A stretch of DNA of 10,294 nt from a virus. The notes beneath the pieces were generated by a model. The model did no database searches, was not told the origin of the DNA, and saw nothing but the letters and a program-made list of their open reading frames with translations. Location of the stretch: UHGV virus genome UHGV-1838671. One strand, given 5' to 3'. How positions within the stretch are numbered: position 1 is the first letter of the stretch; every line of letters starts with the position of its first letter. Positions 6,644 to 6,844 of this stretch are shown one piece after another. The position numbers were made by a program, and so were the translations under genes.

Positions 6644-6844
6644 ATGGAAATCATTACACGTATTGATGCCGCAAAGCGCGGACTTAAACGCTATTACACC
6701 GGAAAACAATGTAAGCACGGACATGACAGTGAACGCTGGGTTTACAACGGACACTGTGTTGAGTGCACCATGGAATCAAACCGTCGCATCAGGGCAGAGA
6801 TTAAGCAGATCATGATTAATTCCTCCCCACAACATTCAAGCTGA
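6644..6844 (+). CDS. Small zinc-ribbon-like protein (66 aa) in the cII position
   Basis: ATG at 6644 with AGGG Shine-Dalgarno 6 nt upstream; the track's 6581 start is a TTG inside the T-run and gives a hydrophobic leader. Contains CKHGH-x9-HCVEC, a C-x-H-x-H ... C-x2-C arrangement. No similarity to lambda CII. Confidence 0.55.
   Translation: MEIITRIDAAKRGLKRYYTGKQCKHGHDSERWVYNGHCVECTMESNRRIRAEIKQIMINSSPQHSS

Follow-up and report, generated by a model that had tools for sequence, protein, structure and literature searches.

The stretch of DNA analysed here (the window; 10,294 nucleotides, virus genome UHGV-1838671) belongs to a phiV10/epsilon15-like prophage and carries on its plus strand, at 6644..6844, a small open reading frame (ORF) that starts with ATG at 6644 and ends with TGA at 6842-6844. 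Its product, MEIITRIDAAKRGLKRYYTGKQCKHGHDSERWVYNGHCVECTMESNRRIRAEIKQIMINSSPQHSS, has 66 amino acids, a predicted pI of 9.45 and a net charge of +4.8. It is 100% identical to PhiV10p42, homologous to gp40 of phage epsilon15, and a member of phrog_1081. An earlier, sequence-only reading of this DNA had drawn attention to the motif CKHGH-x9-HCVEC in the product and to the position of the gene between a terminator and the replication genes, and both are found exactly as described. The motif is read as C23-K-H25-G-H27, x9, H37-C38-V-E-C41. On the upstream side lies a cro-like gene (6263..6493, plus strand; 76 aa, phrog_35 ‘transcriptional repressor’ with E=5.6e-13, 100% identical to PhiV10p41), which in relatives always adjoins the zinc-module gene, followed by an intrinsic terminator (6515..6538, plus strand). 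The latter consists of a stem at 6515-6534 (eight pairs, six of them G-C, with a 4-nt loop) and a T run; the hairpin is annotated in phiV10 as a rho-independent terminator, and all 10 divergent loci in the comparison have it. On the downstream side there is a gene for a DnaT-like/HTH_36 replication initiator (6860..7675, plus strand; HTH_36 at the N-terminus with E=1.8e-10, DnaT at the C-terminus with 1.4e-15, phrog_1032 with 3.5e-108) and, as the last cistron, a gene for a lambda-P-like helicase loader (7672..8457, plus strand; Pfam Phage_lambda_P, 1.5e-56), after whose orthologue a terminator is annotated in phiV10. Tandem repeats of an iteron-like character lie inside the initiator gene at 7157..7296 (18 bp x3.1, 24 bp x2.6 and 12 bp x2.4 according to Tandem Repeats Finder) and probably represent the replication origin, by analogy with lambda, whose ori is inside gene O.

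The start at ATG 6644 is supported by the relatives, which keep the N-terminus M-[EK]-I-I-T-R, in some cases initiated with TTG or GTG. A Shine-Dalgarno-like AGGG can be read at 6634..6637 (plus strand), 6 nt 5' of the ATG, and the relatives have AAGAGG, AGGA or GGGG at an equal distance. A longer ORF of 87 aa could be opened from a TTG at 6581, but this start is unlikely, as it would fall inside a conserved -35 element and would disagree with the N-terminus of the relatives.

The intergenic region between the terminator and the gene proved to be rich in conserved elements. At 6548..6564 there is a repressor-operator-like site, CGTACCTCAAAGGTAAT, which fits ATTACC-N5-GGTAAT with two mismatches. 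The motif equals that of the sites which the epsilon15 record labels as repressor-binding, and the window has seven sites of this kind against 0.28 expected; the GGTAA[TC] half of the intergenic site is invariant in eight of the 10 relatives. A second palindrome, CCAAATCTGG (6571..6580), is a candidate protein-binding site and abuts the -35 hexamer of a promoter-like element on the plus strand at 6581..6609 (-35 TTGATC at 6581-6586, a 17-nt spacer, -10 CAAAAT at 6604-6609). The palindrome, of the form CC-N6-GG with an A/T-rich centre, was found in seven of 10 loci (the window, ZX5, Tyrion, epsilon15, Klebsiella ST512, Superficieibacter and Erwinia), is degenerate in Raoultella and shifted by approximately 10 bp in the Pantoea clade; E. 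coli prophages have three alleles at its off-centre base, 6577. The promoter-like element scores 8/12 against the consensus, under the threshold of our scan, but TTGAT[CA] and [CGTA]AAAAT with a spacer of 16-17 nt are kept in 10 divergent loci. These include ZX5, a natural recombinant that shares the sequence of the window without change as far as 6586 and diverges thereafter until inside the P gene, with the spacer and everything downstream replaced, so that it breaks exactly at the promoter-like element. The layout equals that of the operator-flanked promoter at 8494-8572. Because the conserved promoter-like and operator-like elements lie between the terminator and the gene, the zinc-module gene probably heads a separate, repressor-controlled operon that is not reached by antitermination. 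The sequence-only reading had assigned the gene to the slot of lambda CII; this holds for the gene order (a PR-like promoter, the cro-like gene, the terminator, the gene, the replication genes), but the slot has its own conserved promoter-like and operator-like elements. The early region would then be composed of several separately repressed, terminator-bounded units, not of a lambda-style antitermination cascade, and this alters how positional analogies to lambda genes are to be read.

When the whole window was searched against Rfam, the intergenic region matched no RNA family, which rules out known nut/put-like or riboregulatory families there. Two further candidate elements were discarded: an inner AACCA-N4-TGGTT hairpin was too weak, and its loop size too variable, for a boxB-like element, and a DnaA-box reading of TTATCCAAA or TTATCCATA, present 5' of the -35 in some relatives, is not conserved, the window having AAAACCAAA instead.

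The slot is kept in prophages of Escherichia, Salmonella, Klebsiella, Enterobacter, Raoultella, Pantoea, Superficieibacter and Erwinia. It was seen in phiV10, epsilon15, a Klebsiella ST512 phage, Tyrion, ZX5 and TL-2011b as well as in prophages of Raoultella, Pantoea, Superficieibacter and Erwinia, and across these eight enterobacterial genera the ORF is uninterrupted, starts at a conserved position and has 40-80% identity. Between the window and Pantoea the zinc protein is 67% identical, compared with 25% for the initiator, 42% for Cro and 44% for both the repressor (5524-6108 in the window) and P. In most relatives the stop codon of the zinc-module gene overlaps the start codon of the next gene, whose identity varies (a methyltransferase in epsilon15, a metallophosphatase in Raoultella, other initiators elsewhere). 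The cassette swap in ZX5 prompted the idea of a co-adaptation with the initiator or the origin, which we rejected, as across phages the similarity of the zinc proteins bears no relation to the type of initiator. In some database records the gene is not annotated. Prophages of this type are present in 541 of 5,426 complete E. coli genomes, and in a sample of 82 E. coli prophage copies of the gene pN/pS is 0.085, with 13 of the 15 variable sites being synonymous third positions; the reading frame is under purifying selection. The sole codon polymorphic at the amino-acid level is codon 22 (6707..6709, plus strand), directly before C23, which specifies Q in the window and Q, P, T or S among the copies, P being the family consensus. 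Comparison of the codon-22 allele with upstream intergenic variants in 81 loci gave no clear pattern.

When the protein is aligned with 106 diverse homologous modules, C23, H27, C38 and C41 (codons 6710-6712, 6722-6724, 6755-6757 and 6764-6766 within the zinc-site core, 6710..6766, plus strand) are the only invariant columns, a conservation far beyond chance, and the view of the product as a small protein with a Cys/His metal site is thereby borne out. H25 is replaced with R or Y in relatives, and the predicted ligand set is C23/H27/C38/C41 with H25 excluded; these four residues would bind one zinc ion, as the alignment and the structural model both suggest. The AlphaFold2 model (pLDDT 88.7) has short strands at 16-18 and 30-32 and a long helix at 39-60, with the CxxC pair (C38, C41) at the N-terminus of this helix, and contains no HTH. 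A classical zinc ribbon is built of two zinc knuckles, each on a beta-hairpin, and a three-stranded sheet. As the second ligand pair begins a long helix, which is typical of treble-clef fingers, the modelled fold looks closer to a treble clef than to a classical two-knuckle ribbon. The description ‘zinc-ribbon-like’ given earlier stands as regards the Cys/His site, and the CxxC at the helix start makes the ribbon form appear less likely. A PDB sequence search with the single protein and with a profile of the 106 modules gave no match at E≤10, and Foldseek against the PDB returned nothing below E=3.5, as expected for a zinc module of only 45 residues.

Profile searches place the protein more clearly. 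It matches phrog_1081 (unknown function) with E=8.7e-43, residues 1-66 against profile positions 1-66 of 67, and more weakly phrog_1035 ‘endonuclease VII’, this match being confined to the N-terminal profile positions 45-106. Matches in 120 phage records were retrieved by tblastn, including the N-termini of proteins annotated as endonuclease VII or HNH endonuclease. An exhaustive search with an HMM built from the free-standing clade hit 13,613 cluster representatives at E≤1e-3, a figure to be read as the minimum count of clusters at 50% identity. The best matches carry two to five tandem copies from the N-terminus followed by a tail with a median length of 108 aa, and among the 106 top module proteins the Pfam domains HNH (28), HNH_5 (26), Endonuclease_7 (16) and HNH_4 (11) were identified; about a quarter of the best module proteins are without any nuclease. 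Foldseek against viral models likewise pointed to HNH, endonuclease VII and ‘group I intron endonuclease’. The module consensus is (I/V)(S/T)RxEAxxxGLxRY(F/Y)TGxPCxxGHxxERxVxxGxCxxC. HNH, HNH_5 and Endonuclease_7 were absent from the 66-aa protein in the Pfam scan, and the chain ends at residue 66, after the module helix. Judged from these matches, the protein is a free-standing single copy of a common, as yet unnamed, nuclease-associated module, and no Pfam model among those searched covers this module. All members seen of a close free-standing clade come from temperate phiV10/epsilon15-like phages, and this clade has a C-terminal helix motif (R48, E52, I53, K54, M57) that is conserved only there; small free-standing copies were also found by Foldseek among viral models of Acinetobacter phage AB1 and Escherichia phage sortsyn, which we take to be lytic.

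Other searches were less productive. Pfam and NCBIfam scans of the 66-aa protein gave no match, PADLOC profiles of anti-phage defence gave 0 families at E≤0.1, and a match to YneP (E=0.097, residues 46-62) was dismissed as noise. A second, word-indexed homologue search with a broad alignment added almost nothing, and a scan of genome contigs yielded only three loci. None of the papers searched mentions the motif strings, and those consulted on phiV10, on ZX5 and on SPC32H-related phages do not discuss the gene. The protein is a hypothetical protein in RefSeq (WP_000402895.1), and no role was found in the records or papers examined. The profile and structure search that the sequence-only reading had proposed did not lead to any PDB relative or characterised family, but it did reveal the homology to modules associated with HNH and endonuclease VII proteins.

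We consider the best explanation to be that the protein is a domesticated endonuclease-targeting zinc module that acts as a DNA-binding early regulatory or accessory factor of the replication operon, and we assign this reading a probability of roughly 45%. The small basic protein would fold around a single zinc ion, with C23, H27, C38 and C41 as its ligands. Tandem arrays of one to five such modules before HNH, endonuclease VII or GIY-YIG domains occur in thousands of proteins of phages and bacteria and would constitute the DNA-targeting part of homing endonucleases, and phiV10/epsilon15-like phages would have fixed a nuclease-less copy as the promoter-proximal cistron of an operon comprising the zinc module, the initiator and the P-like loader, probably transcribed from its own repressor-controlled promoter just 3' of the cro terminator. 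The protein may bind nucleic acid, most likely duplex DNA, as suggested by analogy with the fusions to HNH, endonuclease VII and GIY-YIG nucleases and by the basic charge; dimerisation through the conserved C-terminal amphipathic helix is a guess from the amphipathicity of the helix. Finally, we infer that the protein would have an early role, regulatory or accessory, in the transcription or the replication of the operon, with the conserved promoter-proximal region as one candidate target. Of the roles suggested previously, that of a replication or transcription accessory factor appears to be the most reasonable class, but a function specific to the lysis-lysogeny decision is disfavoured because the module occurs in at least 13,613 clusters, mostly before HNH or endonuclease VII domains, and also in phages presumed to be lytic.

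Several observations sit uneasily with this explanation. A single module alone would recognise only a few bases. Conservation of the zinc protein is independent of initiator type and immunity type, so there is no sign that the protein has co-adapted with either origin or operators. The CC-N6-GG palindrome, the only conserved DNA candidate nearby, might just as well be a site for a host factor or for the repressor, and high conservation amid variable neighbours equally fits a conserved host-protein target. The module may also have roles other than nuclease targeting, since about a quarter of the best module proteins have no nuclease.

The leading alternative, though we regard it as unlikely, is that the zinc module is a scaffold binding a conserved host protein (e.g. 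of the replication or transcription machinery) and not DNA, i.e. a host-takeover or accessory factor. It would account for the fact that the protein is the best conserved of the region, as an unvarying target would require, with the repressor, Cro, the initiator and P diverging or being swapped; it is also in keeping with expression as the first product of the replication operon, with translational coupling to the next gene in most relatives, and with the helix motif restricted to the free-standing clade. However, the module occurs mostly in tandem arrays to which one of three kinds of homing nuclease is fused, a layout typical of DNA-recognition modules (PMC10448857), the protein is basic, and no data point to any partner.

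A functional analogue of lambda CII, i.e. an unstable early activator of the repressor and integrase promoters that establishes lysogeny, is improbable. Its appeal lies in the analogous position of the gene, in the confinement of the close free-standing clade to temperate phages, in a weak promoter-like match that reads leftward at 6517-6490, on the strand opposite to cro, and in the fact that no HTH-type CII is encoded in the region. Leftward promoter-like matches are, however, at chance level (three found against 2.8 expected), and the activator sequence TTGC-N6-TTGC has 0 matches in the window. As the sequence-only reading had already observed, the protein lacks a CII-like HTH, and indeed searches of Pfam, PHROGs and NCBIfam yielded neither an HTH nor a CII match. 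Promoter-like and operator-like elements of its own precede the gene, which segregates in ZX5 with the replication cassette and not with the immunity region, and the wider family extends to the presumably lytic AB1 and sortsyn, so that a CII-like role finds no backing in profile, target sequence or transcriptional layout.

Still less probable is a role in anti-homing or site protection, in which the nuclease-less module would occupy the DNA site that related module-HNH endonucleases from co-infecting phages recognise, and would prevent them from cutting at the module boundary. The homology to the targeting part of homing endonucleases is what such a role would predict, the gene lies exactly at a mosaic boundary of the kind that nuclease genes are reported to mark (PMC10448857), and the four amino acids at codon 22 in otherwise invariant copies have an arms-race-like appearance; on the other hand, no full-length endonuclease occupies the slot among the relatives examined, the idea has no citable precedent, and the strong purifying selection overall would be expected equally of a housekeeping function of the phage. 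We find it very hard to favour an RNA-binding zinc finger that, like Com of phage Mu, would control how the replication genes 3' of it are translated: such a role would suit a small basic zinc protein encoded directly 5' of, and often overlapping, the next cistron, but there is no similarity to the C4 fingers of the Com type, the family context is that of DNA nucleases, and a conserved RNA target is unlikely because the downstream gene varies. That the gene is a functionless, decaying remnant of a homing endonuclease is strongly disfavoured: such genes often degenerate to DNA-binding fragments, as with HNH-AP2 genes in Xanthomonas phages (PMC2248197), and its lack of annotation in some records might be taken in the same sense, but both the low pN/pS and intact ORF described above and a conservation exceeding that of the neighbours speak against decay.

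The gene matters because it heads the replication operon, encodes the most conserved protein of the early control region and belongs to a prophage type that roughly one in ten complete E. coli genomes carries. The link to the targeting modules of homing endonucleases implies a testable activity, zinc-dependent DNA binding, and the protein, with its single module, offers a tractable model of a very abundant domain without Pfam coverage, in phiV10, a cultivable and genetically manipulated phage. A bolder proposal, which we think improbable, is that the modules are a large family of sequence-reading fingers strung together by homing endonucleases so as to recognise long DNA targets, that a single finger was domesticated as an early master regulator of the replication operon, and that codon 22 is a specificity position under diversifying selection. 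If this were true and each module read a few bases predictably, the arrays would amount to a compact and programmable means of DNA recognition provided by nature.

Among known systems, the closest counterparts are uninformative as to function: the identical PhiV10p42 is annotated as a hypothetical protein, and epsilon15 gp40 (54% identity over residues 1-48 by tblastn) shares the slot from the cro-like gene to the replication genes. The N-termini of phrog_1035-type proteins, such as the ‘endonuclease VII’ of Klebsiella phage vB_KpnP_ZX22 and the ‘HNH endonuclease’ of Xanthomonas phage Murka, share the module with its four invariant ligands, but these nucleases combine one to five modules with a C-terminal His-Me nuclease domain, whereas the window protein has one module, no nuclease and a C-terminal helix peculiar to its clade. 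With lambda CII only the gene order is shared (after the cro terminator, before the replication genes), the differences in fold, family and transcriptional context being those set out above. The GIY-YIG intron endonuclease I-TevI also has a zinc finger, a small four-ligand module in its DNA-targeting part; this finger is a Cys4 type and serves mainly as a spacer, not as a reader of bases. It gave no sequence or profile match among PDB chains and no Foldseek PDB match to the window protein. The AP2 domain, a targeting domain of HNH endonucleases that gave rise to free-standing transcription factors of plants and apicomplexans (PMC2248197), is a parallel in evolutionary course, but its fold is unrelated to the window module and it has no zinc site. 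A further parallel is CapR. T5orf172 homing endonucleases carry repeated zinc-finger DNA-binding modules (CapR/DUF723/DUF4379) arranged as beads on a string, and CapR of the Vibrio PLE satellites is a free-standing nuclease-less derivative that functions as a transcriptional repressor (PMC10448857). The two cases differ in their ligands (CxxC...CxC in CapR, C-x3-H-x10-C-x2-C in the window module) and in the associated nuclease (T5orf172 for CapR, HNH or endonuclease VII for the window-type module), and the Pfam models of DUF723 and DUF4379 matched neither the 106 modules at E≤10 nor the 106 full-length proteins at E≤0.01. What they would have in common is the logic: zinc modules that target nucleases, and a nuclease-less derivative recruited as a regulator.

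The window covers the left half of a prophage of the phiV10/epsilon15 type (Uetakevirus), adjoining guaA in Escherichia coli, the annotated neighbourhood reading guaB-guaA, integrase and then the early genes. Its gene order agrees with that of phage phiV10, and the reported integration site of the related phage ZX5 is the 3' end of guaA (PMC9782041). The segment 5400-8500 is found with 100% identity in two complete E. coli chromosomes and with at least 95% identity in 541 of 5,426 complete genomes. The ORF at 6644-6844 (+), here called the zinc-module gene, indeed encodes, as the sequence-only reading had claimed, a 66-aa protein with the motif CKHGH-x9-HCVEC (C23-K-H25-G-H27-x9-H37-C38-V-E-C41; the zinc protein) between a terminator and the replication genes. 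It is preceded by a cro-like gene (6263-6493; phrog_35) and an intrinsic terminator (6515-6534), which the phiV10 record also annotates, and is followed by genes for an initiator (6860-7675; HTH_36 and DnaT domains) and a lambda-P-like helicase loader (7672-8457; P).

The zinc-module ORF is a real gene. Across 25 distinct nucleotide alleles, drawn from 82 copies in E. coli prophages and viral contigs, 15 sites vary; 13 of these are synonymous third positions, and codon 22 holds the remaining two. pN/pS is 0.085, a selection pattern that excludes a dead endonuclease remnant. The N-terminus M-[EK]-I-I-T-R is kept in relatives with ATG, TTG or GTG starts. Codon 22 (6707-6709), directly preceding the first zinc ligand, is the only amino-acid polymorphism in these copies, with four states (Q/P/T/S), and the wider family favours proline there. 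A mutational hotspot, relaxed constraint, or diversifying selection on a position that sets specificity could each explain the four states.

Public records already list the gene's product as hypothetical: this is the annotation both of PhiV10p42, to which the zinc protein is 100% identical, and of its homologue, epsilon15 gp40. Profile and structure searches linked the zinc protein end to end to phrog_1081, a family of unknown function (E=8.7e-43), and to the nuclease-associated modules described below, with no match in Pfam, NCBIfam or PADLOC, none among PDB chains by sequence or profile search, and no structural neighbour in the PDB by Foldseek; a literature search found no paper on the protein or its motif. 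When the window protein is aligned with 105 diverse modules from other proteins, C23, H27, C38 and C41 are the only invariant columns (A9, G20, G26 and R31 being near-invariant), which defines the ligand set as C-x3-H-x10-C-x2-C; position 25 varies to R or Y in the close clade, where H27 is invariant. A confident AlphaFold2 model (mean pLDDT 88.7) has a short helix (6-11), strands at 16-18 and 30-32 and a long helix (39-60), with C38 and C41 on the first turn of the latter. A treble clef has one ligand pair on a knuckle and the other at a helix N-terminus, and differs in this from a classical zinc ribbon. Judging from the predicted secondary structure, the zinc protein would have a treble-clef arrangement; a metal site is plausible, and the term "zinc ribbon" of the sequence-only reading needs correction. 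The protein is basic (pI 9.45, net charge +4.8).

The clade profile, searched against 1.84 billion representative proteins, gave 13,613 matches at E<=1e-3 and 1,645 at E<=1e-10. The best matches are proteins of 100-540 aa carrying two to five tandem module copies that start at the N-terminus, followed by a C-terminal tail with a median length of 108 aa. Pfam domains in 106 module-array proteins include HNH (28), HNH_5 (26), Endonuclease_7 (16) and HNH_4 (11); a DHxxP-type HNH motif occurs in about half of 147 module proteins, and roughly a quarter of the 147 consist of module arrays with no nuclease and a tail of less than ~45 aa. Among cultured phages, the module makes up the N-terminal part of proteins annotated as endonuclease VII or HNH endonuclease, whose genes sit between unrelated conserved genes, an insertion pattern shared with free-standing homing endonuclease genes. 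A Foldseek search of viral models recovered these same nucleases and, in addition, a "group I intron endonuclease". In 106 copies the module itself escapes every Pfam model, even at E<=10, and the family is named by none of the searched libraries. As judged from these matches, the zinc protein is a single, nuclease-less, free-standing copy of this very common nuclease-associated zinc module.

The surrounding gene order is conserved in phages and prophages of Escherichia, Salmonella, Klebsiella, Enterobacter, Raoultella, Pantoea, Superficieibacter and Erwinia: a leftward repressor gene, the cro-like gene, the terminator, an intergenic stretch of ~105-140 nt, the zinc-module gene, the initiator gene and the P-like loader gene. 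The zinc-module stop codon overlaps the next start codon in most relatives. An extra gene is sometimes found before the initiator gene, as with a C5 DNA methyltransferase in epsilon15 (2701-3870) and a metallophosphatase in Raoultella prophages (4195-4857), and each example overlaps the zinc-module stop codon. Pairwise identities rank the zinc protein as the most conserved of the region's proteins (67% between the window and Pantoea, against 25% for the initiator, 42% for Cro and 44% each for the repressor and P). Its identity does not follow initiator type across phages, and co-adaptation to a particular origin was rejected for this reason. Binding of a conserved host protein would account equally well for a constant zinc protein beside changing neighbours, and is the main rival to the DNA-binding role proposed below. 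As to the neighbours themselves, the repressor gene (5524-6108, -) encodes two HTH regions (a YdaS-like match at 21-61 and HTH_3 at 106-147), in keeping with the two-HTH type mentioned in the phiV10 record and with the SPC32H repressor structure to which the epsilon15 record refers. The initiator gene contains three adjacent tandem-repeat arrays at 7157-7296 (18 bp x3.1, 24 bp x2.6 and 12 bp x2.4) encoding NGNEPE and MLNDPKNG peptide repeats; by analogy with lambda gene O, these are probably the replication origin.

A natural recombination separates the zinc-module gene from the immunity region. Phages ZX5 and TL-2011b match the window, with two mismatches, from the repressor gene through cro, the terminator and the operator to GGTTGATC (6586), and then diverge abruptly, with similarity returning inside P. 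The breakpoints, at 6586 and ~7920 of the window (3325 and ~4620 of ZX5), lie exactly 3' of this -35 hexamer and near residue 84 of P, and the swapped cassette, in which a -10 CAAAAT is still present, comprises the zinc-module gene, the initiator gene and the N-terminal part of P. The zinc-module gene of both phages (3380-3592 in each; TTG start, 70 aa) is absent from the GenBank annotation, so that cro and the primosomal gene seem to be separated by a 340-nt gap. Its product is 60% identical to the window protein over residues 1-53 (tblastn) and 47% over the full length; the initiators have only the C-terminal DnaT domain in common. Physically, then, the zinc-module gene is part of the replication cassette and not of the immunity region.

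A promoter-like block conserved in ten divergent loci between the terminator and the zinc-module gene comprises a -35 TTGAT[CA] (6581-6586), a spacer of 16-17 nt and a -10 [CGTA]AAAAT (6604-6609; then AAAAT-N3-CGTAA). A longer ORF from TTG-6581 is not credible, since its start falls within this element. Just upstream of the -35 lies CGTACCTCAAAGGTAAT (6548-6564), a match to ATTACC-N5-GGTAAT, which the epsilon15 record marks as a repressor-binding motif. Seven such operator-like sites occur in the window (0.28 expected, with up to two mismatches), the others being upstream of int (135-151), around the leftward promoter (5389-5405 and 5451-5467), at PR, the rightward promoter region upstream of cro (6163-6179), and on both sides of a putative third rightward promoter (8494-8510 and 8556-8572); four of the seven flank the leftward promoter region and the element at 8494-8572. 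The latter (ATTACCTTCGAGGTAAT, 18 nt, TTGATT, 17 nt, TTTAAT, ATTACCTAAGGGGTAAA) lies 3' of P and its terminator and ahead of a DUF1064 gene (8575-8919), and its layout of operator, TTGATT, 17 nt, -10 and operator follows the same plan as the zinc-module block. The operator-like sites and this recurrent layout suggest that the early region is a series of separately repressed, terminator-bounded units rather than one antiterminated operon, and the zinc-module gene looks like the head of the replication unit, with its own predicted promoter. With a score of 8/12 against the consensus, under the scan threshold, this promoter may depend on an activator. Next to the -35 is a short abutting palindrome, CCAAATCTGG (6571-6580), that most relatives retain; in Raoultella it is degenerate, and the Pantoea clade has it displaced. 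Its base 6577 (CCAAAT[C/A/G]TGG) is tri-allelic in the same E. coli prophage population, with no clear association there between this allele and that of codon 22.

A role like that of lambda CII has the gene's position as its one point in favour and several points against it, including the gene's passage with the replication cassette and its own conserved promoter-like block; the block also means that the "CII slot" of the sequence-only reading needs correction. The accessory-factor role suggested there is plausible, and that reading is partly supported overall. A lambda PRE-like establishment promoter would be located at the position corresponding to 6490-6517 (-), and a weak match to a leftward promoter (TCTACA, 16 nt, TATCAT; 9/12) does occur there, overlapping the terminator and the last part of cro; with 3 promoter-like matches against 2.8 expected, the region is at chance level.

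What is new here is the assignment of the zinc protein to a huge nuclease-associated zinc-module family without a name in the searched libraries, and the placement of its gene at the head of a replication operon with a separate predicted promoter. We propose that the zinc protein may be a zinc-dependent DNA-binding protein, possibly dimeric via its clade-specific amphipathic C-terminal helix (conserved R48, E52, I53, K54 and M57), which would serve the replication operon as a regulator or accessory factor early on. The proposal builds on the tandem arrays fused to three homing-nuclease families, which have the layout of DNA-targeting modules, and on the precedent of CapR. The CapR/DUF723/DUF4379 zinc fingers of T5orf172 endonucleases follow the same modular logic, and CapR, their free-standing and, like the zinc protein, nuclease-less relative, is a transcriptional repressor (PMC10448857).
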